Shown: positions 21,979 through 32,803, counted from the stretch's first letter. The stretch is DNA of 32,803 nt from an uncultured Planctomycetales bacterium (GCA_964401235.1 CAYNXT010000002.1:1-32803); one strand, 5' to 3'. Made by a program: numbers and translations. The notes: generated by a model not told the origin, from the letters alone.

Positions 21979-22046
21979 GCCTGAGCCTAGTCGTTGACAG
22001 TATTCGACGAGCCTGCTACGCTGTAACTCCTTCATGCAATAGGGAC

Positions 22047-22076
22047 TTGACAAGATATATATCTTTGATATATACT
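22047..22076 (+). promoter_or_regulatory. Putative vapBC promoter with an embedded 14-bp perfect palindrome (candidate operator)
   Basis: TTGACA 22047-22052, an 18-nt spacer, and TATACT 22071-22076. The palindrome AAGATATATATCTT lies at 22052-22065. Confidence 0.5.
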
Positions 22077-22083
22077 AGTGGTT

Positions 22084-22314
22084 ATGAAAGAGGCGAAACT
22101 ATTCCAGAACGGTCGCAGCCAGGCGGTCCGATTGCCCAAAGAGTATCGCTTGACGGGCAAATCCGTCTATATTCATAAGCTGGGGAATCTTGTCGTGCTC
22201 ATTCCAAAAAAGAAATCCTGGAGCTCCCTGGTAGACGCGTGCGCCAAATTCACCGAAGATTTCATGACGAGCCGGGATCAAGGAGTGCATGAGCGCGAGC
22301 GCCCGTTTGCATGA
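22084..22314 (+). CDS. vapB: AbrB/SpoVT-family antitoxin VapB
   Basis: MKEAKLFQNGRSQAVRLPKEYRL is the swapped-hairpin antitoxin motif. ATGA overlap with the PIN gene. Confidence 0.85.
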   Translation: MKEAKLFQNGRSQAVRLPKEYRLTGKSVYIHKLGNLVVLIPKKKSWSSLVDACAKFTEDFMTSRDQGVHERERPFA

Positions 22315-22709
22315 AGTACCTCTTGGATACAAACATTTGTATCTACCTCATTAAGAAGAAGCCTCAAAAGACGTTCGCCAAGTTTCAAGATTTGAATGTC
22401 GGAGAAGTCGGCATTTCGGCTATTACCTACGCAGAGTTAGAGTATGGGGTGGCGCACAGCAGTGACCCCCAACAAAACAGGATGGCGTTGAGCGAGTTTT
22501 TGGCTCCGTTAGAGCTTCTTGATTTCCAAGCCCCCATCGCTCCCCTCTATGGAGTTCTTCGCACCTCGCTGGTGCGCGCCGGAAAAATGATCGGTCCGCT
22601 TGATCTGTTGATCGCCGCGCATGCATTATTTCTTGGTGCGGTTCTTGTCACGAACAACGTCAAAGAGTTCTCAAGAGTCGCTGATCTCAGAATTGAGAAT
22701 TGGGTATGA
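22311..22709 (+). CDS. vapC: PIN-domain ribonuclease toxin VapC
   Basis: MKYLLDTNICIY..., AITYAELEYG, DLLIAAHAL, LVTNNVKEF. Confidence 0.92.
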   Translation: MKYLLDTNICIYLIKKKPQKTFAKFQDLNVGEVGISAITYAELEYGVAHSSDPQQNRMALSEFLAPLELLDFQAPIAPLYGVLRTSLVRAGKMIGPLDLLIAAHALFLGAVLVTNNVKEFSRVADLRIENWV

Positions 22710-22740
22710 AGGAGCGAGGGGTTTCCCGCGATTGCCATTT

Positions 22741-22817
22741 CGGGGCGTGGCGTAGCTTGGTAGCGCGCGTGAATGGGGTTCACGAGGTCCTGGGTTCAAA
22801 TCCCAGCGCCCCGACCA
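22741..22817 (+). tRNA. tRNA-Pro (anticodon GGG)
   Basis: Hand-folded: acceptor CGGGGCG/CGCCCCG (C1:G72), A73, encoded CCA, anticodon stem CGTGA/TCACG with loop ATGGGGT, T arm CTGGG-TTCAAAT-CCCAG. Confidence 0.9.
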
Positions 22818-22827
22818 TCGAAATACA

Positions 22828-22855
22828 GTGAAAAGTGTAAAGTTGAAAGTGGAAA
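22828..22855. repeat. Heptanucleotide tandem array (GTGAAAA GTGTAAA GTTGAAA GTGGAAA)
   Basis: Four contiguous 7-nt units starting 11 nt after the tRNA-Pro 3' end. Confidence 0.8.
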
Positions 22856-22884
22856 AGGAACCAGGAATTCAATTAGAGTTCTGA

Positions 22885-24195
22885 ATGAGTCGGAAAATTA
22901 ACGTTGGTCTTATTGGATTGGGGACGGTGGGCACCGGTGTCGCTCGGGCCCTTCTGGAGAAGGCGCATCTTCTTGAGGAGCGCATCGGCGCACGGGTCGT
23001 GCTGCGCCGGGTGTGCGATCGTGACTTGCGGCGCCGGCGGGGGTTTCGCCTCCCACCAGGCTTAGGGACTTCTGACCCTGCGGTCATCCTGCGCGATCCG
23101 GACATTCACATCGTCGTCGAGCTGATTGGCGGGCTGGAGCCGGCCAGAACGCTTGTGCTCGAAGCGTTGCGGCGCGGCAAGCATGTGGTGACTGCGAACA
23201 AGGCGCTGCTGGCCGAGGCAGGGCATGAGCTCTTTCGAGCGGCCGCCAAGGCGAACGCCGATCTCTATTTCGAAGCGTCGGTCGGAGGCGGCATTCCAAT
23301 TATTAAGGCGCTGCGCGAAGGGTTAGTGGCGAACGACGTGGATGCGATCCTCGGCATCGTCAATGGCACATCCAACTACATCCTCACCCAGATGCGCGAG
23401 AAAGGCCTCAGCTTTCATGAGGCGCTCTTAGAAGCCAAGCACCATGGCTATGCCGAGCGCAATCCTTCACTGGATATCGAGGGGCATGACGCGGCGCACA
23501 AACTTGCCATCTTAACGCTGCTAGGATTTGGACAGCAGGTCCGCCTGTCCGATATTCACGTGGAAGGTATTAGCAAAATTTCCCAAGCCGACATTCAATA
23601 TGCCGAGGAGCTCGGGTATTGCATCAAGCCGCTGGCGATTGCCAAGCAGGTCGATCATGAACTCGACATACGGGTGCACCCGACACTCCTGGCTAAGACG
23701 CACCTTCTGGCCAATGTGAATGGCGTCTACAACGCCATCTATGTGCATGGCGACATGGTAGGTTCCACCTTGTTCTACGGCAGAGGGGCAGGCCAAAATC
23801 CAGCGGCCAGCTCGGTGGTGTCCGACATCGCGGATGTGGCGCGAAACCTGGTCACCGGGACCAACCATCGCATCCCACTCACCGCCTATCACGCTCGGCG
23901 CGTGCATCGCTTGCGCCGGATGGGCAATATCGAGACGCGTTACTACATGCGCTTTATGGCGGTGGATAAGCCCGGGGTGCTTGCCCGTATCGCGAATATC
24001 TTGGGGCACCACCACATTTCCATTGCGAGCGTCCATCAGAAGGAGCGCAAGGCCGCGCGCTTTGTGCCTGTCGTCATGATGACGCACGAAGCCAAAGAGT
24101 CTCACGTCCGCCGCGCCCTTGAGACGATCGACCGTCTTGGGTTCGTCAGGCAGCCGACTGTCGCGCTGCGAACGGAAGCTCCACGTCCGCAGTAG
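22885..24195 (+). CDS. hom: Homoserine dehydrogenase
   Basis: INVGLIGLGTVGTGV, VVTANKAL, GGGIPII, NGTSNYILT, C-terminal ACT-like domain. Confidence 0.93.
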   Translation: MSRKINVGLIGLGTVGTGVARALLEKAHLLEERIGARVVLRRVCDRDLRRRRGFRLPPGLGTSDPAVILRDPDIHIVVELIGGLEPARTLVLEALRRGKHVVTANKALLAEAGHELFRAAAKANADLYFEASVGGGIPIIKALREGLVANDVDAILGIVNGTSNYILTQMREKGLSFHEALLEAKHHGYAERNPSLDIEGHDAAHKLAILTLLGFGQQVRLSDIHVEGISKISQADIQYAEELGYCIKPLAIAKQVDHELDIRVHPTLLAKTHLLANVNGVYNAIYVHGDMVGSTLFYGRGAGQNPAASSVVSDIADVARNLVTGTNHRIPLTAYHARRVHRLRRMGNIETRYYMRFMAVDKPGVLARIANILGHHHISIASVHQKERKAARFVPVVMMTHEAKESHVRRALETIDRLGFVRQPTVALRTEAPRPQ

Positions 24196-24309
24196 CCATC
24201 CCATGATCCCACCCCCTGCGTGTTGGCCAAAGGCCGTCCGCTGGCCCCTGGGATTGACCATTGGTCCAGCGGCCCGCGTCGCCTGCGGCGACGCCACACA
24301 GGGGGTGGG

Positions 24310-25425
24310 ATGAGTACGAAGCCGTCCTCATCGACTCGGCCCCATCCCTATCCCTGGCCTGGAGTCATCGAGGCCTATCGCTCCTACTTGCCGGTCTCAC
24401 GCACCACGCCGATCGTCACGCTCTTGGAAGGCAATACCCCGCTGATTCACAGCCGCACCCTCAGCGAGCGCATCGGCAAGAAGGTGGAAGTCTATCTGAA
24501 GTACGAAGCGATGAATCCGACCGGCTCGTTTAAGGACCGTGGCATGACCCTCGCGATTTCAAAAGCCTGTGAAGCGAAATCCGTGGCCGTCTTGTGCGCC
24601 TCAACCGGTAATACATCGGCCTCAGCTAGTGCGTATGCCGCGCGCGCCGGCTTACGATCCATCGTGCTGATTCCGAGCGGGGCGATTGCATTGGGCAAGC
24701 TCTCGCAAGCGCTGATTCATGGAGCCAGCATCGCCGCGGTCGAGGCAAACTTCGATGCGTGTCTCGCCATCGTCAAGTCGCTGGCCCAGCAGTATCCCAT
24801 GACGATCGTCAATTCGATCAATCCGTATCGCATTGAGGGACAAAAAACCTGCGCGTTTGAAATCTGCGATGCCCTTGGTGGCGCGCCGGATATTCATGTA
24901 ACTCCTGTGGGGAATGCAGGCAATATCACGGCGCAATGGAAGGGCTATCAAGAATATCGCGCCCGTGGTCGCATCCAGCGCCTGCCGGTGATGCTGGGAT
25001 TTCAAGCCCAAGGAGCGGCTCCCATCGTGAAAGGGAAGATCATCCCCAAGCCCCGGACGGTGGCGACTGCCATTCGCATCGGCAACCCGGCGAGTTGGCA
25101 AGGCGCGCTTGCCGCTGCAGGGCAATCGCACGGTGCGATTCAAGCCGTCACGGACCGAGAAATTCTCTCTGCCTACCGACTCTTGGCACAAGAGGATGGC
25201 GTGTTTGCCGAACCGGCCTCAGCCGCCTCCATTGCCGGACTGCTCAAGCTGGCTCGAGCCGGGTATTTTACATCACGAGTGTCACGTGGCGCGCGCCTGA
25301 AGATCGTGTGCGTCCTCACCGGCCACGGGCTCAAAGATCCTGAGCGAGCCATCAAGAGCATCCGTGTGCCCAAACCGCTCCCCCCTTCGATCTCGACGAT
25401 CGCCAAAGCCGTCGGTCTGAAATAA
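24310..25425 (+). CDS. thrC: Threonine synthase
   Basis: EGNTPLI, NPTGSFKDRGM (PLP lysine), ASTGNTSAS. The ATG at 24310 follows a GGGGTGG Shine-Dalgarno sequence. Confidence 0.92.
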   Translation: MSTKPSSSTRPHPYPWPGVIEAYRSYLPVSRTTPIVTLLEGNTPLIHSRTLSERIGKKVEVYLKYEAMNPTGSFKDRGMTLAISKACEAKSVAVLCASTGNTSASASAYAARAGLRSIVLIPSGAIALGKLSQALIHGASIAAVEANFDACLAIVKSLAQQYPMTIVNSINPYRIEGQKTCAFEICDALGGAPDIHVTPVGNAGNITAQWKGYQEYRARGRIQRLPVMLGFQAQGAAPIVKGKIIPKPRTVATAIRIGNPASWQGALAAAGQSHGAIQAVTDREILSAYRLLAQEDGVFAEPASAASIAGLLKLARAGYFTSRVSRGARLKIVCVLTGHGLKDPERAIKSIRVPKPLPPSISTIAKAVGLK

Positions 25426-25445
25426 GCGTATAATAATTTCATTCC

Positions 25446-26594
25446 ATGAAATATCTGATCATCCGCTGTGAAGACCATGCCTGCCAGGGAACCCATGTCG
25501 CTTCGCTGCTTGAAGGAGCGAAAGCCGTCCATTTGCAGCATCTTGCCCAGGCCGGAGCGGCCGGCCTCATTCGGCAAAAGAGTTCCGAGCAATGGTGCGA
25601 CCGATTCGCCTTGCACCGTGCATTGTTCGGCCTGGGTCCAGAGGATCTAGAGGCCTCGGCCGGTTGGTGTTACGCTGCCGGCACCAATCTTCGGCCCTCG
25701 GCTCAGGAAACCGTGTGGTGTTGCGATTTTGTGACTCAGCGGGATGGCGCTGTTGCCGACGCGACAGCAGGCAATATCCAAACAAAAGAGAGCAACCTCC
25801 TGCTGCAGGCGCTCAATGCGGAGCTTGGATCAGACACGAGGCGCTGGGAGGTAGGGCATGGTTCGCGCCATGTGTTTCTCACCAGCGATCCAGCGCTCAG
25901 CGTGCAGCATGCCGCGGTGCGGAGCGGCCCGGACGTCTTGATCGGCCAATCATGGAAGAAGCATTTGCCTGATGATCCATTGCGGGAACCATTGCAACGG
26001 CTCATGGAGCAAGCAGCCTTGGTACTTGAGCGGCATGATATTAACCGCGTGCGATTAGATCTTGGTGAGAATCCGGCCAATCTGGCATGGTTCTGGGGGG
26101 CCGCGCCACGGCAAGAGCCGCGTAAATTTTCAGATCGCACCGGGCTCTCGGGAGCGGTGATATCGAGCAGCTTTCCCATGCGGGGGTTTGCCACGTGCCT
26201 TGGATTGGAGTGGCGACCGGGTTTGACATCCTTTGACGAGACGGCATTCGAGAAACTATTGCAAGAACTCACCACGCTGTTGCAGCGTCACGACTGGGTC
26301 TATGTGCATGTGCGAGTGGACAGTGCGGATCCGGTCGATCGCTTATGTGCCGTCGAACGGGTCGACCAGCTGCTGCTCAAGCCGCTGACCGGCTGGTTGC
26401 CCGAGCAAGGGCCCTGGCGCATGGCCGCGGTGATTGATGAACGATCCGTCTGTTCGCCCCTGTGGGTCGCCATTGGCAGCGGGCTTCCGCAACAAGGGGT
26501 CGAGCACTTAAGCCCTGAGCGGCTGGCCCAGAGCTCATTGAACATGAACAACGGCTTAGAGCTCTTTGCGTGGCTCACACAGAAGGGCGAATGA
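25446..26594 (+). CDS. Cofactor-independent phosphoglycerate mutase (ApgM)-like metalloenzyme-superfamily protein; candidate non-canonical homoserine kinase
   Basis: 382 aa with an MKYLII... N-terminus and overall ApgM-like layout. Lies between thrC and lysC. ATGA-coupled to lysC. Confidence 0.65.
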
Positions 26595-27820
26595 AACGAC
26601 GGCTCATTGTGCAAAAATTCGGCGGCAGCTCCGTCGCGAATCCTGAACGGATCAAACGGGTGGCCCAGCGGGTTGTGGACACCAAGCGCAAAGGCGCCAA
26701 CGTGGTGGTGGTCGTCTCGGCGCTGGGCGATACCACGGATGAGCTGCTGCAGCTCGCCTCGCAAATTACCCAGCAACCAGCCGAGCGCGAGCTCGACATG
26801 CTCATGGCGACCGGAGAGCAGGTGTCCGTAGCACTGCTGGCGATGGCTATTCATGAGCTCGGGGAGGACGCCGTGTCGTTTACCGGCGCACAGGTCGGCA
26901 TCTTGACCGATGGCATCCATACCAAGGCCAAAATTGTGGATATTCAGACCCAGCGGATTGTGCAGGAGCTGCCGAAGGGTCGCATTGTTATCGTGGCCGG
27001 TTTCCAAGGGGTGAACCTCAATCAAGATATCACCACGCTCGGCCGCGGCGGCTCTGACCTGACGGCCGTCGCACTGGCCAAGGCTCTTGGCGCGGATCTG
27101 TGCGAGATTTATACCGATGTGGATGGCGTCTACACCGCCGATCCGCGCATCGTCCCCGATGCTAAGAAGCTTGCGGCCATCAGCTACGATGAAATGCTCG
27201 AGATGGCATCGCTGGGGGCGCAAGTCATGCAGGCGCGATCCATCTTTGTCGCCAAGCGGTTTGAGATTCCCATTCATGTGCGATCCAGCTTTTCACTTCG
27301 GGAGGGCACGATGATCACCAAGTCGGTCAAGGCGATGGAGGACATCGTCGTCAGCGGCGTGACGCTGCAGAAGGACGAAGCCAAGGTCACGATTCGCGAT
27401 GTGCCGGACAAGCCTGGGATGGCTGCGGAGATCTTCCGGGAATTAGCTAGCAAAGACATCAACGTGGACATGATCGTCCAAAACGTCAGCCGCGAGGGCT
27501 CAACCGACTTGTCCTTTACCGTCATCAAGAGCGACTTGCCATCGACGCTACGCGTGACACGAAGCGTGTCGCACCGCATCGGGGCAGGCGAAGTGACGAC
27601 GGATGAGGGGGTGGCCAAGCTTTCGATTGTGGGAATCGGCATGCGCAGCCACTCGGGCATCGCGGCGAAGATGTTCGAAGCCATGGCGCGAGAGCGCATC
27701 AATATCGAAATGATCTCAACCTCGGAAATTAAGATCTCCTGCATCATCCGCCGCCAGCACGCCGAGCGGGCGATGCGCGTGATCCATAAAGCGTTTGAGC
27801 TTCGCAAACAGAGAACGTGA
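26591..27820 (+). CDS. lysC: Aspartate kinase (with two C-terminal ACT domains)
   Basis: [17 protein letters not shown](L)[29 protein letters not shown]. Confidence 0.93.
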
Positions 27821-27827
27821 AATGGTT

Positions 27828-27919
27828 TCACCGCAAAAACGCAAAATTTCGCAAAGACGCAAAAAGGTGCACTAATGTTCTTTTTTGCGTTTTCGCGGTC
27901 TTTTGCGTTTTGGCGGTGA
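27828..27919. repeat. Long imperfect inverted repeat (40-nt arms, 12-nt loop) built from CGCAAAA-like units; possible terminator or attenuator
   Basis: The left arm (27828-27867) matches the reverse complement of the right arm (27880-27919) at 33 of 40 positions by hand alignment. Confidence 0.8.
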
Positions 27920-27928
27920 TATCGTGCG

Positions 27929-29539
27929 ATGTCATCGATTCAACTCTATGACACGACGCTCCGCGATGGAGCACAGACCGAAGGCATCTCGTATTCCGTC
28001 ACTGACAAGTTGCGGATTACGGAGAAGCTCGATGCCCTCGGCTTGCACTATATTGAAGGGGGCTGGCCGGGCTCCAATCCCAAGGATGCGGAATTTTTTC
28101 GCCTGGCTAAACGCCTTCGATTCACCACTGCCCGCTTAGCCGCGTTCGGCAGCACCCGGCGAGCCGACACCGCAACTGCCGATGCGAATCTCAACGCGTT
28201 GCTCAAGGCCGAAACCAAGACCCTCACCATCTTTGGCAAGAGCTGGGATCTGCACGTCCGGGATGTTTTAAAGGTGAGTCTGTCGGATAACTTGAAAATG
28301 ATCGAAGACTCGGTCGCGTACCTGAGACGGCACGACCGCGAGGTGGTCTACGACGCCGAGCATTTCTTCGATGGATACAAGGACGATGCTGACTATGCGG
28401 TGAAGACTCTGAAGGCCGCCTTAGCCGGCGGAGCCAGCGCGATCGTCTTGTGTGATACCAATGGTGGCAGCCTGCCCAGCGAGATCACGAAGATGATTGC
28501 CGAGGTGAAACGCCACGTTCCGGTGGCCATGGGCATCCACACGCATAACGATAGCGACCTTGCGGTGGCCAATGCACTGGCGGCCGTTGAGGCGGGTTGC
28601 GTCCAGGTGCAGGGGACGATCAATGGGTATGGAGAGCGCTGTGGCAATGCCAACCTCGTCTCGCTTATCGCCATCTTGAAACTGAAAAAAGGGATCAACT
28701 GCTTGCCGGACGCGAAGTTGAAACAGTTGACCGACACCTCGCGCTATGTCGCGGAAGTCAGCAACATGGCCCAGCATGCCAATCAACCGTTTGTCGGCTC
28801 GGCGGCATTCGCCCACAAGGGCGGGGTGCATGTCAACGCGGTTATGAAGAATCCCCGCACCTATGAGCATCTGGAGCCGAGCACCGTTGGCAATGAACGC
28901 AAAATCTTGGTCTCCGAGCTCTCAGGCCGCTCTTCGCTTGTGTTTAAAGCCAAGGATTTAGCGCTGGATCTTTCCAAAGAGACGCCTCAGGCCAAGCGGC
29001 TCCTCAAACTCTTACAGCGGTTGGAGCATGAAGGCTACCACTTCGAAGCCGCAGAGGGATCGCTGGAGCTTCTCCTCAAACGAGAGCTCAAAGAGGTTCG
29101 ACCCTTCTTTACGCTAGAGGGCTTCCGCATCATCATGGAGAAACGCGATCACCGTCTCACTTCAGAAGCCACCATCAAAGTGCGGGTCAACAAGGTGGTG
29201 GAGCATACCTCAGCCGAAGGTGATGGCCCGGTGAACGCGCTCGACAATGCCATTCGCAAGGCGCTCAAGCGCTTTTATCCCACGCTCTCTGAGATGCACC
29301 TGACCGATTTTAAGGTGCGCGTGCTCGATGAAAAAGCCGGCACCGCAGCGAAGGTACGCGTCCTGATCCAGTCCCAGGATGCGCATGATTCCTGGGGCAC
29401 GGTGGGTGTCTCGGAAAACATCATCGAAGCCAGCTGGCAAGCCCTCGTCGATTCGATTGAATATAAGCTGCTTAAGGACCAACGCTCAGCGTCTAGCGTA
29501 CAGCGTATAGCGTATAGAAAGAAATCGGCTACGAAATAG
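27929..29539 (+). CDS. cimA: (R)-citramalate synthase (LeuA/CimA family, long form)
   Basis: [39 protein letters not shown]-terminal LeuA-dimer regulatory domain. Confidence 0.85.
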
Positions 29540-29584
29540 TACGATGTCCCTATACGCTATTCGCTAAACGCTATACGCTAGTCC
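29481..29584. repeat. Inverted pair of heptanucleotide arrays (AGCGTAT)n ... (CTATACG)n
   Basis: Left units are aacgctc agcgtct agcgtac agcgtat agcgtat (29481-29515). Right units are ctatacg ctattcg ctaaacg ctatacg ctagtcc (29550-29584). CTAG occurs at 29493 and 29578. Confidence 0.9.
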
Positions 29585-29593
29585 TATGTTGTT

Positions 29594-32416
29594 ATGAATC
29601 AATTGCCTCCCCAATACAATCCTAAGGAAGTCGAGGAAGCCCGCTATCAGTGGTGGGAGTCCCAAGGTTTCTTTGCGGCCGATGTGGACCCGAAGCGCAA
29701 GCCGTACACCATCGTGATTCCTCCGCCCAATGTCACCGGCATTCTCCACATGGGCCATGCGCTCAACAATACGATCCAAGACATCCTGATCCGCCATAAA
29801 CGCATGCAAGGGTTCAACGCGCTCTGGGTCCCCGGCACTGATCATGCAGGGATCGCCACGCAAAACGTCGTCGAGAAATCACTCGCCAAGGAAGGCAAGC
29901 GCCGGCAAGACCTTGGCCGCGAAGAGTTCATCAAGCGCGTGTGGCAGTGGAAAGAGCAGTACGGCAATACGATCATCTATCAGCTAAAGCGGCTTGGCTC
30001 CTCCTGTGACTGGCGCCGCGCCCGCTTTACGATGGATGAGGGGTTATCTGAGGCCGTGCTAGAGGTGTTCGTCCAGCTCTACAACAAAGGGTTGATCTAC
30101 CGAGGCAACTATATCATCAACTGGTGCCCGCGCTGCCAAACCGCTCTGGCTGATGAAGAAGCGCCTCGCCGGCAAACCCAAGGCAAGCTCTACCACATTC
30201 GATATTCGCTGGAATTGGGTGAAGGGTTATCAGTTTTTCTTGAGGTGGCGACGACGCGACCAGAAACGATGCTTGGTGATACCGCCATTGCCGTCCATCC
30301 GAAGGACAAGCGATACAAATCGCTCATTGGCAAGCACGCGATCTTGCCATTAGTGAATCGAAAGCTCCCCGTCATTGCCGATGAGCTGGTGGACCGCGAA
30401 TTCGGCACCGGCGCGGTCAAAGTCACACCGGCCCATGATCCTGCAGACTTCCACATGGGCAAGAAGCACAAGCTCGAGTTCATCAACGTGATGACCGATG
30501 ACGCGCACATGACGAACGTCCCCAAAGCCTACGAAGGGTTAGACCGGTTTGAGTGCCGCAGCAAGCTCATTGTCGATCTTGAACAAGCTGGGTTCCTCGG
30601 AGCGATCGAGGAGCACCAACACAACGTGGGCCATTGCTACCGGTGTAACACGGTCGTGGAACCTCGGCTCAGCCCTCAATGGTTTGTAAAAATGAAGCCG
30701 CTCGCCAAACCGGCTCTTGAGGCGGTGAAGAAGAAAAAGATCACCTTTGCGCCGGCGCGCTGGACCAAAGTCTACCTCAACTGGATGGAGAACATCGAGG
30801 ACTGGTGCATCAGCCGTCAGATCTGGTGGGGCCATCGTATTCCGGTCTGGTATTGCGATACATGTCTTGGCCAGACCGGAGTGGAAAGTGGACAGTGGAA
30901 AGTGGAAAGCAAAACCGGTCGTCAAGCAGGAATTATCGTGTCGAAAAATCAACCTGCTGGATGTCCGGCTTGCGGCTCCACGAAGCTGCGTCAAGATGAA
31001 GATGTGCTCGACACTTGGTTCTCCTCATGGTTGTGGCCCTTTTCCACGCTAGGCTGGCCCAAAAAGACCAAGGACCTAGCCTACTTTTATCCCACCCATA
31101 CGCTGGTGACTGCGCAGGAGATCATCTTCTTCTGGGTCGCCCGCATGATCATGGCCGGTTATTTCTGCATGAAAGAACCCCCATTTACCAAGGTCTACAT
31201 TCACGGCACCGTGCGCGACATCACCGGCAAGAAGATGTCCAAATCATTGGGCAACATTATCGATCCGTTGCAGATCATCGACCAGTACGGCACCGATGCG
31301 CTGCGTTATACCTTGGTGACCTCAACCGCAATCGGCCAGGACGTGTTCCTCTCCGAGGAGCGGTTTACCGCCGGCCGCAATTTTGCCAACAAGCTCTGGA
31401 ACGCCACGCGGTTCATTCTGAGCGTTGCCGAAGGCTCTAGGCCGAAGGCCGAAGGCAAGCCTCCAGCCTCCAGCCTCCAGCCTCGAGCCCTCATGATTCC
31501 TGACCGTTGGATATTGTCTAAGCTGCAGCACACCATCACGCGAGTGACGAAATCGCTCGACCAGTTCCTGTTCAATGACGCGGCCACCGCTCTCTACGAT
31601 TTCTTATGGCACGACGTGTGCGACTGGTATCTCGAGATCGCGAAAGTTCAACTAGCTCCAAGCTCCAAGCTCCAAGCTTCAGCAGACACGTCCAGCCTGC
31701 AGCTTGAAGCCTGCAGCAACACCATCGGCATTTTGACTCACGTTCTTGACACGAGCCTGCGGCTGCTTCATCCCGTTATGCCGTTTGTGACTGAAGAACT
31801 CTGGCAGCAACTAGCAACAAGCAACAAGCAACAAGCAACACGGAAACCCGCAACTGTTGCTGGTCGCGTGTCGCATGTTGCTTCAATTATGGTGGCTGAG
31901 TGGCCCAAGGCCTCCAAGAAACTGATTGATGAGAAAGCCGAAGAGCAGTTCGAGCAGTTCAAGGCGGTCGTGGTCACGATCCGGAACACGAAGGCTGAAT
32001 TAAACGTCCCGCTCGATGCCAGGCCACCGGTACGACTCTCCAGCGCGCAGGCGCCTGTCAGGGCCTTCTTCGAAGCGCACCGGCCGCTTCTGCAGGTTTT
32101 AGCTGGGACCGGTGAGATTTCCGTGGAAGCCGCGCGCCAGCGCATCAAGCACGCCGCAGCGTCCGTCGTGGACGGCATTGAGGTGGTGATCCCGCTTGAG
32201 GGGATGATCGACCCGGCTAAGGAGCGCGGCCGGCTTGAACAGCGCATCACTGAGTTGACGAACCACGTCAAGCGACTCGAAGCACAGCTGGCGAACACAC
32301 AGTTTACCAAACGAGCCCCGAGGGACGTTGTGGAACAGACAAAGACCGCGTTGACCCAGGCCCGCGAGAACTTGAAAAAATCCTCGGAGCACCTGGCCGT
32401 CCTGCAGTCCATGTAG
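29594..32416 (+). CDS. valS: Valine--tRNA ligase
   Basis: PPPNVTGILHMGHA (HIGH), KMSKSLGN (KMSKS), QDEDVLDTWFSS, C-terminal coiled coil. Confidence 0.96.
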   Translation: MNQLPPQYNPKEVEEARYQWWESQGFFAADVDPKRKPYTIVIPPPNVTGILHMGHALNNTIQDILIRHKRMQGFNALWVPGTDHAGIATQNVVEKSLAKEGKRRQDLGREEFIKRVWQWKEQYGNTIIYQLKRLGSSCDWRRARFTMDEGLSEAVLEVFVQLYNKGLIYRGNYIINWCPRCQTALADEEAPRRQTQGKLYHIRYSLELGEGLSVFLEVATTRPETMLGDTAIAVHPKDKRYKSLIGKHAILPLVNRKLPVIADELVDREFGTGAVKVTPAHDPADFHMGKKHKLEFINVMTDDAHMTNVPKAYEGLDRFECRSKLIVDLEQAGFLGAIEEHQHNVGHCYRCNTVVEPRLSPQWFVKMKPLAKPALEAVKKKKITFAPARWTKVYLNWMENIEDWCISRQIWWGHRIPVWYCDTCLGQTGVESGQWKVESKTGRQAGIIVSKNQPAGCPACGSTKLRQDEDVLDTWFSSWLWPFSTLGWPKKTKDLAYFYPTHTLVTAQEIIFFWVARMIMAGYFCMKEPPFTKVYIHGTVRDITGKKMSKSLGNIIDPLQIIDQYGTDALRYTLVTSTAIGQDVFLSEERFTAGRNFANKLWNATRFILSVAEGSRPKAEGKPPASSLQPRALMIPDRWILSKLQHTITRVTKSLDQFLFNDAATALYDFLWHDVCDWYLEIAKVQLAPSSKLQASADTSSLQLEACSNTIGILTHVLDTSLRLLHPVMPFVTEELWQQLATSNKQQATRKPATVAGRVSHVASIMVAEWPKASKKLIDEKAEEQFEQFKAVVVTIRNTKAELNVPLDARPPVRLSSAQAPVRAFFEAHRPLLQVLAGTGEISVEAARQRIKHAAASVVDGIEVVIPLEGMIDPAKERGRLEQRITELTNHVKRLEAQLANTQFTKRAPRDVVEQTKTALTQARENLKKSSEHLAVLQSM
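30881..30908. repeat. Heptanucleotide array inside valS (GTGGAAA GTGGACA GTGGAAA GTGGAAA)
   Basis: Four contiguous 7-nt units, translated as VESGQWKVES. Flanked by accgg (30875) and accgg (30914). Confidence 0.85.
31427..31493. repeat. Two abutting heptanucleotide arrays inside valS (GCCGAAG-type x4, GCCTCCA-type x5)
   Basis: gccgaag gctctag gccgaag gccgaag / gcaa / gcctcca x3 gcctcga gccctca. Translated as AEGSRPKAEGKPPASSLQPRAL. Confidence 0.85.
31654..31716. repeat. Nine-unit heptad block inside valS (AGCTCCA x3, AGCTTCA ... CCTGCAG CTTGAAG CCTGCAG)
   Basis: 63 nt, equal to 9 x 7 nt and to 21 codons. Preceded by CTAG at 31652. Translated as LAPSSKLQASADTSSLQLEAC. Confidence 0.85.
31807..31883. 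repeat. Inverted heptad arrays inside valS (GCAACAA x5 ... TGTTGCT-type x4)
   Basis: Left units at 31807-31841, spacer, right units gttgctg gtcgcgt gtcgcat gttgctt at 31856-31883. CTAG at 31811. Translated as LATSNKQQATRKPATVAGRVSHVAS. Confidence 0.85.
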
Positions 32417-32420
32417 CCTG

Positions 32421-32803
32421 ATGGGAAGGGACTTGCTCGAGTTGACCCCCCAGACCGTCCGCCCGCTGATTCGCCGTGCCCTGATAGAGGACGCGGCGTT
32501 CCGAGACGCCACGTCCAGGACCGTCATCCCTAAGGAGCTGCGCATCCGCGCCCGCATCGTGGCGAAATCCCGTGGTGTGTTGGCTGGCGTCAAGGTGGCA
32601 GCACTCACGTTCACCACGGTGGATTCATCGCTACACTGCCGCCTCCATCTGCACTCTGGGGCGAAGCTCGCTCCAGGCAGTTCAATTCTGACGATCGAAG
32701 GCTCAGCGCGCTCCATCTTCGCGGCCGAGCGCGTGGCGCTGAATCTGCTCGGGCACCTGTCCGGGATCGCGACCCTGACCGCAGAGTTTGCGCGGCGGGT
32801 CAG
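32421..32803 (+). CDS. nadC: Nicotinate-nucleotide (quinolinate) pyrophosphorylase, 5' partial
   Basis: Open to the window end. ALIEDAAFRDATS...AKSRGVLAG...ILTIEGSARSIFAAERVALNLL is the NadC N-terminal pattern. Confidence 0.85.
   Translation, partial: MGRDLLELTPQTVRPLIRRALIEDAAFRDATSRTVIPKELRIRARIVAKSRGVLAGVKVAALTFTTVDSSLHCRLHLHSGAKLAPGSSILTIEGSARSIFAAERVALNLLGHLSGIATLTAEFARRV

Follow-up and report, generated by a model that had tools for sequence, protein, structure and literature searches.

Dispersed arrays of tandem heptanucleotides have been described in several bacteria, and here we analyze a dense set of them in a stretch of 32,803 nucleotides (hereafter, the window) deposited under an uncultured Planctomycetales bacterium (GCA_964401235.1, CAYNXT010000002.1:1-32803), where arrays of about four heptads, many of them in inverted pairs, lie between genes and, in frame, within valS, the gene for valyl-tRNA synthetase (ValRS). 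Rehm et al. 2015 described ~180 loci of the GGGAATC heptamer in Xanthomonas and loci of GGGGA(C/T)T in Nostoc PCC 7120; these arrays show a preference for four units, which the authors attribute to G-quadruplex (G4) formation, and are mostly intergenic, with an intragenic share of 7-11% in Xanthomonas (PMC4692102). The arrays of the window and its relatives resemble these repeats in being dispersed heptamers with a four-unit preference, in forming nearby convergent inverted pairs capable of stem-loop formation, in varying in length and sequence between close relatives, and in showing no link to insertion sequence (IS) elements. They differ in that one G-rich unit dominates each genome in Xanthomonas and Nostoc, whereas several units coexist here, most of them unable to form G4, and in that the described repeats are under-represented in coding sequences (CDS), whereas 75% of those studied here are located deep in open reading frames (ORFs), in frame.

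Aklujkar et al. 2009 described elements of four tandem heptanucleotides with the consensus GGACCGG in Geobacter metallireducens (PMC2700814). These also consist of four heptads and occur both between and within genes, sometimes several per gene, but they have a single consensus unit and are read as regulatory RNA elements, and the passages on them describe no paired inverted architecture. GGACCGG is absent as a unit among the 69 arrays analyzed below. The short tandemly repeated repetitive (STRR) sequences of heterocystous cyanobacteria, classically described as intergenic, are likewise dispersed tandem heptanucleotides, with other units and in another phylum; for Calothrix PCC 7601, three STRR heptanucleotides are cited in PMC4692102. 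MacGregor 2015 reported TAACTGA direct repeats in marine Beggiatoaceae and some cyanobacteria (PMC4679880). This, too, is a genome-specific heptamer, found at many loci as short sets of 2-6 tandem copies, but nearly all sets are intergenic, just upstream of start codons, and direct, with a single inverted case, and the forward unit contains stop codons. As cited in the same paper, a 2007 study found heptanucleotide repeats to be the commonest long simple sequence repeats (SSRs) in most prokaryotes and explained them by polymerase slippage (PMC4679880).

Rickettsia palindromic elements (RPEs; Ogata et al. 2000/2002, as summarized in PMC10969869) are selfish elements inserted in frame in many unrelated housekeeping genes, and the added peptide is judged, in that summary, compatible with protein fold and function. 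The elements considered here are similarly palindromic in-frame insertions in unrelated housekeeping genes (valS, nadC, birA, coaX and the C-terminus of cimA). RPEs are ~100-150 bp long and have a family consensus and no heptad periodicity, whereas those of the window and its relatives measure ~30 nt when solo and ~60-100 nt when paired, and consist of tandem heptads with variable spacers. REPINs are inverted doublets of REP (repetitive extragenic palindromic) sequences mobilized by REP-associated tyrosine (RAYT) transposases (Bertels & Rainey 2011; PMC3116915). The shared traits are the inverted doublet with a less conserved spacer that can form a hairpin, the over-representation of doublets, the presence of several families per genome and non-autonomy. 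However, REPINs are extragenic, each family adjoins its RAYT gene and compensatory changes are common, whereas the present elements have arms that are non-palindromic tandem arrays, are mostly intragenic, have no RAYT gene in 144 kb and show no compensation in the one orthologous trio available. Each REP is an imperfect palindrome with a conserved 5' tetranucleotide of the GTAG type.

The elements of the window thus belong to a known but unexplained kind, and their inverted form is not new. An earlier note on this DNA, made from the sequence alone, had supposed the inverted, CDS-invading form to be undescribed; convergent pairs are known in Xanthomonas (PMC4692102), and four-heptad intragenic elements in Geobacter (PMC2700814). 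In the literature, we found no description of in-frame copies that are so dense and so dominant in essential genes, of several coexisting non-G-rich families that keep the four-unit size, or of the strict polarity and the visible turnover at orthologous loops reported below.

Heptad arrays across the clade and beyond

The ValRS encoded in the window is 100% identical to a protein of one metagenome-assembled genome (MAG) at NCBI, and its closest named relatives (70-71% identity) are, every one, assigned to a 'Candidatus Omnitrophica/Omnitrophota bacterium'. We refer to the window together with seven syntenic loci from Omnitrophota MAGs (L081-L087) as the clade, a sample of eight loci and 144 kb, and compare it with ValRS loci from other phyla (1.375 Mb); 80 loci from unrelated phyla, retrieved with universal ValRS motifs, served only as negative or unbiased controls. 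The clade contains 69 heptad arrays (59 in the first 131 kb, six loci), a density of 0.37-0.48 arrays per kb, depending on the score threshold, against 0.02 per kb (28 in 1.375 Mb) in the other phyla; two more distant Omnitrophota loci hold one array (L004) and none (L022). Nearly all arrays are 29-34 nt long, that is, four full units and a fraction, whatever the unit, and each genome carries several units (AGCGTAT, AGCAACA, AGCTCCA, AGCACAC and others), most of them without G-tracts. Adjacent arrays at a distance of up to 60 nt form 18 pairs, every one of them inverted and none direct; unit complementarity in these pairs is 5-7 of 7 positions against a null mean of 3.3, and the G-richer arm is 5' in 17 of them, the sole C-rich-first pair being in L083. 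The earlier note had proposed that the family is dispersed and is defined by a shared architecture, not by a single sequence, and these counts bear this out.

Most of the arrays are in genes. By annotation, 51 of the 69 are located in CDS, and in an annotation-free test 75% of the clade arrays lie deep in long ORFs compared with ~32% in the comparison sets. The density in valS is 1.80 per kb against 0.23 per kb elsewhere in the clade loci, with up to nine arrays in the single valS gene of L082, and the further host genes are nadC, birA, coaX and the C-terminal part of cimA. In an alignment of 27 ValRS of the clade, five loops (sites 1 to 5) vary wildly in length and sequence, and the remainder of the protein is 70-80% identical. 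The variable peptides are what heptads and their reverse complements encode in the three frames, as in the paired loop peptides SSEFGVRS/ELRTPNS, SGEWRVAS/HSSLITHHS and GSRLKVQG/SNLEPRT, and the predicted junction peptides of in-gene elements include ...TGVESGQWKVESK... and ...GSRPKAEGKPPASSLQPR.... The DNA of L081-L087 confirms the loop insertions site by site, so that the invasion of coding sequence, also proposed at the outset, is established by both alignment and the DNA of the relatives. Among the latter, site 2 is hypervariable in length and sequence, and the insertion points in site 1 shift by a few codons between genomes; because these points differ within one loop, repeated independent insertion followed by selection fits better than a fixed target.

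The window ValRS has 940 aa compared with ~880-885 aa in insert-free relatives, a lengthening by ~6%, and its five arrays are in frame and stop-free. In an AlphaFold model of poor quality and little weight (mean predicted local distance difference test score, pLDDT, of 66.8), the insertions coincide with coil segments between helices with a pLDDT below 50 (residues 429-443, 616-627, 691-696 and 747-760). Units that yield a stop codon in some frame account for 3 of the 51 arrays in CDS, 4 of the 18 outside and 21% of random heptamers. Unit complementarity is 7/7 for the two gene-end or intergenic pairs (cimA 3' end) and 5-6/7 for the pairs in CDS, where several of the arm mismatches are precisely those that remove TGA or TAG, affecting the units of a whole arm rather than single ones. 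After the Rickettsia RPEs, this is a second clear case of palindromic repeats that are routinely translated as extra loops of housekeeping proteins; in practice, they inflate apparent protein divergence and appear as low-complexity 'insertions' in MAG proteomes.

The unit families are genome-specific: 18.9% of the array pairs within a locus share at least 6 of 7 unit positions, compared with 2.4% between loci. In L083, for example, AGCACAC is found at five sites, and the AGTTCGG family likewise occupies five in L082. The spacers differ between copies of the same family in the Omnitrophota loci, and each array is internally homogeneous. Some elements are conserved between genomes. The window and L082 have in common, at orthologous positions, 21 identical nt of the element at the cimA 3' end (TCAGCGTCTAGCGTACAGCGT), and the mirrored arm is kept as well; the element at valS site 3 is orthologous in the window, L084 and L085, where the arrays differ by one substitution repeated in all units, with no change in length. 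In this single orthologous trio, no compensatory arm changes were seen, the differences between arms being unilateral, contrary to the compensatory conservation that the earlier note had put forward as a check. The cimA 3'-end and site 3 elements are old. Others, to judge from the comparison of L086 with L087 (93.5% DNA identity), are young: with the same flanks, the element at ValRS site 1 belongs to the GGGACAG family in one genome and to the AGTGGTC family in the other, site 3 is filled in L087 and empty in L086, and nadC contains the GGGACAG family in L087 and not in L086. A patch of ~300 nt in nadC is only ~50% identical between the two (L087:3921-4227 and L086:5008-5296) and lies, in L087, between two heptad arrays in inverted orientation (GGAGACA and TGTCCCA, separated by ~190 nt), which may be the ends of a recombined or replaced segment. 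Syntenic comparison, suggested in the earlier note, thus yields the presence-absence differences that it looked for, but no consistent target-site duplications, either in the 18 Omnitrophota pairs or in 24 metagenome pairs among the matches listed; a conserved flanking tetranucleotide was not found around the arrays, either.

Similar arrays occur well outside the clade. When metagenomes were scanned for (AGTGGAA)3, at least 120 contigs (L088-L207) matched, with a host GC content of 29-66%. Three units sufficed for a match, and among the matches listed the length mode is nevertheless four (9 arrays of three units, 31 of four, 19 of five and 3 of six); in the same matches, the inverted partner of (AGTGGAA)n lies downstream of the G-rich array in 21 cases and upstream in 0, and with all units considered the G-rich arm comes first in a ratio of 23:1. 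In the unbiased distant ValRS loci, the ratio is 6:0, which brings the polarity over three data sets to 46:2. In L122, L138 and L164 (QMCE01*/QMCD01*), four-unit arms of AGTGGAA/AGTTGAA surround an inner palindrome, GGCTA(A)CGCG...CGCGT(T)AGCC, which is conserved, has a variable loop and is present in several copies; these are thus true multi-copy foldback elements in an unrelated organism.

Several side observations concern these distant loci. A few of the metagenome (AGTGGAA)n arrays among the matches listed are very long, up to 264 nt, and L171, L180 and L137 each contain four to six arrays within a few kb. Hairpins of heptads, spacer and inverse heptads are found near valS in Gemmatimonadales, Chloroflexota, Oscillospiraceae and other unrelated genomes (L076:271-340, L076:21992-22054, L019:9855-9960, L034:4442-4548 and L033:7298-7449), with the G-rich arm first in all. 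Candidates for autonomous elements, in which inverted arrays 0.1-5 kb apart bracket a gene, were mostly unrelated neighboring arrays and were discarded.

Elements of the window, their folding and the CTAG tetranucleotide

In the window, Tandem Repeats Finder (TRF) detects eight period-7 arrays, all within the last 10 kb, and the first 22.8 kb contain none. A run scan found six strong period-7 runs against 0.19 expected from Markov shuffles and, at the strict threshold, zero runs for any other period from 4 to 12. An assembly artefact is ruled out, the same in-frame architecture being present in independent assemblies from NCBI, ENA and JGI.

All elements are given on the plus strand. The element at the 3' end of cimA consists of a left, G-richer arm (29488-29517, AGCGTCT AGCGTAC AGCGTAT AGCGTAT AG; TRF) that encodes the final residues of CimA, a 32-nt spacer that contains the cimA stop codon (29537-29539), and a right arm (29550-29580, CTATACG CTATTCG CTAAACG CTATACG CTA) with 7/7 unit complementarity to the left one. 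Four elements reside in valS (29594-32416, 940 aa). At site 2, a solo array, (AGTGGAA)4AG, occupies 30 nt in frame (30880-30909; TRF) and corresponds to ValRS residues ~430-439 (...GVESGQWKVESK...) in the zinc-knuckle loop. At site 3, the left arm (31427-31456; TRF), with in-frame GCCGAAG / AGGCCGA units and orthologues in L084 and L085, is separated by 1 nt from the right arm (31458-31489, AGCCTCC x4.6; TRF), with 5/7 complementarity and both unit mismatches being A:C on the sense strand. The left arm at site 4 (31654-31678, AGCTCCA x3.6; TRF) begins within the Leu codon of the conserved ...KVQL (CAACTAGC), and L083 carries AGCACCA x3 at this site; its degenerate right arm (31693-31717, CAGCCTGCAGCTTGAAGCCTGCAGC), read from the sequence and too degenerate for an array call, is an approximate reverse complement of the AGCTCCA units. 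At site 5, the left arm (31806-31840; TRF) comprises AGCAACT followed by four AGCAACA units, the first unit being the native codons of ...WQQL (CAGCAACTA), and the degenerate right arm (31855-31882, TGTTGCT GGTCGCG TGTCGCA TGTTGCT) was read from the sequence.

The remaining period-7 array is solo and degenerate (22827-22855, AGTGAAA AGTGTAA AGTTGAA AGTGGAA A; TRF period 7, 4.1 copies). It is intergenic, 10 nt past tRNA-Pro(GGG) and upstream of the homoserine dehydrogenase gene, and it shares one unit family with the array at 30880-30909, which is absent from the list in the earlier note; both lack an inverted arm. The architecture that the earlier note ascribed to at least six loci is accordingly found as paired arms at several of them and not at 22827-22855. 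A long, near-perfect hairpin of 96 nt in the intergenic region between the aspartate kinase gene and cimA (27826-27921; TRF periods 8 and 18) is built of CGCAAAA(N1-3) sub-repeats with a period of 8-10 and is thus only loosely related to the heptad elements, not one of them. Around the solo array in valS there is a 6-bp inverted repeat, GACCGG...CCGGTC (30874-30920), which is also a direct ACCGG repeat; this bracket could be a chance occurrence or a junction signature. A start with AG, or (AGN5)4AG, was considered as a general rule: it holds for all eight window arrays and fails in the clade, with 6 AG starts against 6.4 expected.

The elements differ widely in predicted folding. The cimA 3'-end element (29486-29583) has z-scores of -6.3 (DNA) and -7.0 (RNA), and 27826-27921 has -6.9 (DNA) and -8.3 (RNA). 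The fold of 31806-31882 is moderate (z = -3.0 for DNA and -2.9 for RNA), with the right arm pairing with the left; those of 31427-31489 (RNA z = -2.8, DNA z = -1.1) and 31654-31717 (RNA z = -2.1, DNA z = -0.7) are weak, the RNA fold of the latter pairing both arms, and 22827-22855 forms no hairpin (DNA z = -1.4). Of the earlier hairpin predictions, those for the cimA 3' end and for 31806-31882 hold up, that for 31654-31717 is weakened, and the poorer fit expected at 31427-31493 is seen; 27828-27919, taken there for a looser relative, is a very strong hairpin, with a period other than 7.

For the two strong intergenic hairpins only, a structural or regulatory role is plausible. That the hairpins in general are selected terminators, attenuators, mRNA stabilizers, protein-binding sites or G-quadruplexes, and not selfish or mutational by-products, is very unlikely in our estimate. 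Such a function would agree with the stability of both intergenic hairpins (z = -6 to -8), with the heptad hairpin that the window and all five relatives with that region have at the 3' end of cimA, with the conservation of 21 nt and the mirrored arm there between the window and L082, and with the G4 action proposed for the Xanthomonas repeats (PMC4692102). However, most copies are within essential CDS and have decayed complementarity, the orthologous trio shows no compensatory change, elements are gained, lost and replaced among close relatives, and the four-unit size is kept although most units are unable to form G4. The terminator scan gave no terminator-like call and no T-tract for the stems of 27826-27921 and 29486-29583, and among Rfam covariance models run on 22000-32803 (E <= 1), tRNA-Pro was the sole match, with no Rfam family for the elements. 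On the sense strand, the mismatches between arms are 12 A:C against 3 G:U, and a role at the RNA level on that strand was rejected, since the mismatches are mostly A:C rather than G:U.

The earlier note also observed that several arrays begin at CTAG. The positions it gave (29493, 29578, 31437, 31652 and 31811) are correct, and array DNA contains 5 of the window's 32 CTAGs where 0.27 would be expected; in the relatives, there are 3 against 0.97 expected. The two CTAGs of 29488-29580 are mirror images of each other and conserved in L082, and are therefore not independent. Two of the window CTAGs share the junction CAACTAGC, in which CTA is the conserved Leu codon. None of the ~22 AGTGGAA-phase metagenome arrays among the matches listed is preceded by CT. 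Given the lack of enrichment in the relatives and the absence of CT in the metagenome arrays, CTAG is a local feature, not a rule, and was rejected as a general target or boundary.

These data also bear on whether the elements are miniature transposable elements with inverted repeats (MITEs) of the IS630/Tc1-mariner type that insert at the TA within CTAG. IS630 prefers TA in 5'-CTAG-3' (Tenzen & Ohtsubo 1991, as listed in PMC2170065), 29488-29580 reads C-TA-[GCGTACAGCG...CGCTATACGC]-TA-G, and the window excess of CTAG in arrays points the same way. But CTAG/TA is present at both ends of this one element only, and its array continues beyond the left CTAG; the two CTAGs are conserved mirror images in L082, the relatives are not enriched and, like the metagenome matches listed, show no CT/TA flank, no AGTGGAA-phase array in the metagenome matches listed is preceded by CT, no IS630 transposase was seen in the examined loci, and the internal sequence differs among same-family copies in the Omnitrophota loci. 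This reading is largely refuted, and we regard it as extremely improbable.

Origin of the arrays

We give about an even chance to a model in which small non-autonomous modules of repeats are copied and the copies then pass a strong filter of selection. Copying is favored because the families are genome-specific, the same family occurs at different loci in near-identical genomes, and both the size and the orientation are defined. The module would be an array of ~30 nt with four copies of a heptanucleotide and a fraction, and two arrays would usually be placed convergently, as inverted arms separated by a short spacer that varies, the G-rich arm being 5' whichever strand is read, so that each strand could fold back. 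Several unit families per genome would be multiplied by the copying process. Between genes and at gene ends, the palindromes would stay near perfect and form strong hairpins; within genes, the survivors would be those copies that keep the frame, contain no stop in any of the three frames and lie in permissive loops, five of them in ValRS. Such copies would be translated as extra loop peptides, like the Rickettsia palindromic elements, and the uniformity of the arrays would be maintained by concerted evolution or replacement. With a spread by copying or transposition, the loop 'hot spots' would reflect selection rather than targeting, and the inserted peptides would be tolerated passengers.

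Several observations weigh against copying. The window encodes no transposase, reverse transcriptase (RT) or primase-polymerase, and no RT, primase-polymerase, IS200/IS605 TnpA or RAYT/Y1 transposase is found among the annotated genes of the 144 kb, a sample far too small for exclusion; no transposase, RT or other candidate enzyme is near any element, apart from an unrelated IS1595 transposase in L082. Neither a target-site duplication nor a conserved target was found. The spacers of same-family copies in the Omnitrophota loci are not conserved, which is unusual for MITE-like copying, and the arms in CDS are each uniform yet imperfectly complementary, so that whole arrays differ rather than single units. 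One and the same substitution distinguishes all units of orthologous arrays, although one-unit slippage would cause a frameshift in valS, and such concerted substitution fits the regeneration of arrays as well as copying. Where one element replaces another in the same loop of close relatives, homologous recombination could have exchanged the alleles, with no new insertion. The presence of arrays in many phyla is a hint of a universal cause in replication or repair and not of a specific mobile-element enzyme. The absence of an enzyme, of target-site duplications and of a conserved spacer, together with whole-array homogeneity, fits de novo repeat synthesis equally well. The suggestion in the earlier note that a generating mechanism, rather than simple copying of one element, is at work thus stands in part: the homogeneity of the arrays and the unconserved spacers agree with it, whereas the recurrence of genome-specific families (18.9% against 2.4%) does not.

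The repeats could instead have arisen entirely in situ, by slippage on a chance proto-repeat, with the inverted arm formed by quasi-palindrome template switching and no copying between loci. Slippage is the cause to which the prevalence of heptanucleotide SSRs, the commonest long class in most prokaryotes, is attributed in work cited in PMC4679880 and PMC4692102; the 31806 array, in which AGCAACT, the native WQQL codons, is followed by four AGCAACA units, is in line with such an origin, and near-identical ValRS alleles of the clade differ by tandem duplications of 9 and 30 nt. Several findings nonetheless disfavor this pure form of slippage: each genome has its own unit families, which are found at more than one locus (18.9% against 2.4%), one family occupies different sites in genomes that are 93.5% identical, the length distribution has a sharp mode at four units instead of a monotonic decay, and strict inversion (18/18) and polarity (46:2) are not predicted. 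Moreover, one-unit slippage is lethal inside valS. We consider a purely in-situ origin unlikely.

Another possibility is de novo templated synthesis at breaks, in which a telomerase-like or reiterative polymerase would add about four genome-specified G-rich heptamers to both 3' ends before joining; the outcome would be a G-rich array, a variable junction and a C-rich array, or a solo array if one end were extended. This would explain the G-rich-arm-first polarity on both strands (46:2), the four-unit quantum that is independent of the unit, the homogeneous arms that are imperfectly complementary to each other, the non-conserved spacers and missing target-site duplications, the genome-specific units, and the orthologous arrays that differ in all units at once. 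But no such enzyme or template was seen in the examined loci, and we know of no repeat-adding enzyme or template of that type in bacteria. The several units that coexist in each genome would need several templates, some organisms have a conserved inner palindrome between the arms, as in ordinary multi-copy elements, and one pair, in L083, is C-rich-first. We hold such synthesis to be quite unlikely, and place equally little weight on the broader proposition that heptad arrays are footprints of a widespread bacterial repair or synthesis pathway that adds about four copies of a genome-specified heptamer to 3' DNA ends, inverted pairs arising when two ends so extended are joined. If such a pathway were real, the excess of heptanucleotide repeats that has long been noted in prokaryotes would be accounted for as well.

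Whether by copying modules, which we prefer, or otherwise, the mechanism has to satisfy three constraints. First, arrays have about four units whatever the unit sequence, which argues against the G-quadruplex as a general explanation. Second, the polarity of inverted pairs is strict: on either strand, the 5' arm is the G-rich one. Third, the arms are each homogeneous and mutually independent. The clade offers an advantage for such work: the repeats are ~20 times denser than in unrelated genomes and are located at orthologous, alignable positions of essential genes, so that a comparison of relatives directly reveals where arrays were gained, lost, replaced or changed in concert. A clean natural system, with three explicit rules for the origin of bacterial heptanucleotide repeats, is the main value of these loci.

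Neighboring genes and allelic variation

According to Pfam scans, the genes of the window are housekeeping genes, all on the plus strand. In its 3' third, the order is PIN toxin, tRNA-Pro(GGG) (22741-22817), homoserine dehydrogenase, PALP enzyme, phosphoglycerate-mutase-like protein, aspartate kinase, cimA-like citramalate/isopropylmalate synthase (27929-29539), valS and nadC. The PIN-domain (VapC-like) toxin gene adjoins the tRNA gene upstream (window 22311-22855), with the degenerate AGTGGAA-type array following the tRNA. In L082, an IS1595-family transposase gene together with HicAB and ParE/Phd toxin-antitoxin pairs breaks synteny downstream of valS (L082:20703-21590).

Near-identical ValRS alleles (99.9-100%; P0006 and P0123, P0036 and P0129) differ by small tandem duplications, namely one of 10 aa (30 nt), NFANKLWNA(S/A), and one of 3 aa (9 nt), KRY, and one allele has a 35-aa deletion. 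These differences suggest that short tandem duplications arise at a high rate in this clade.

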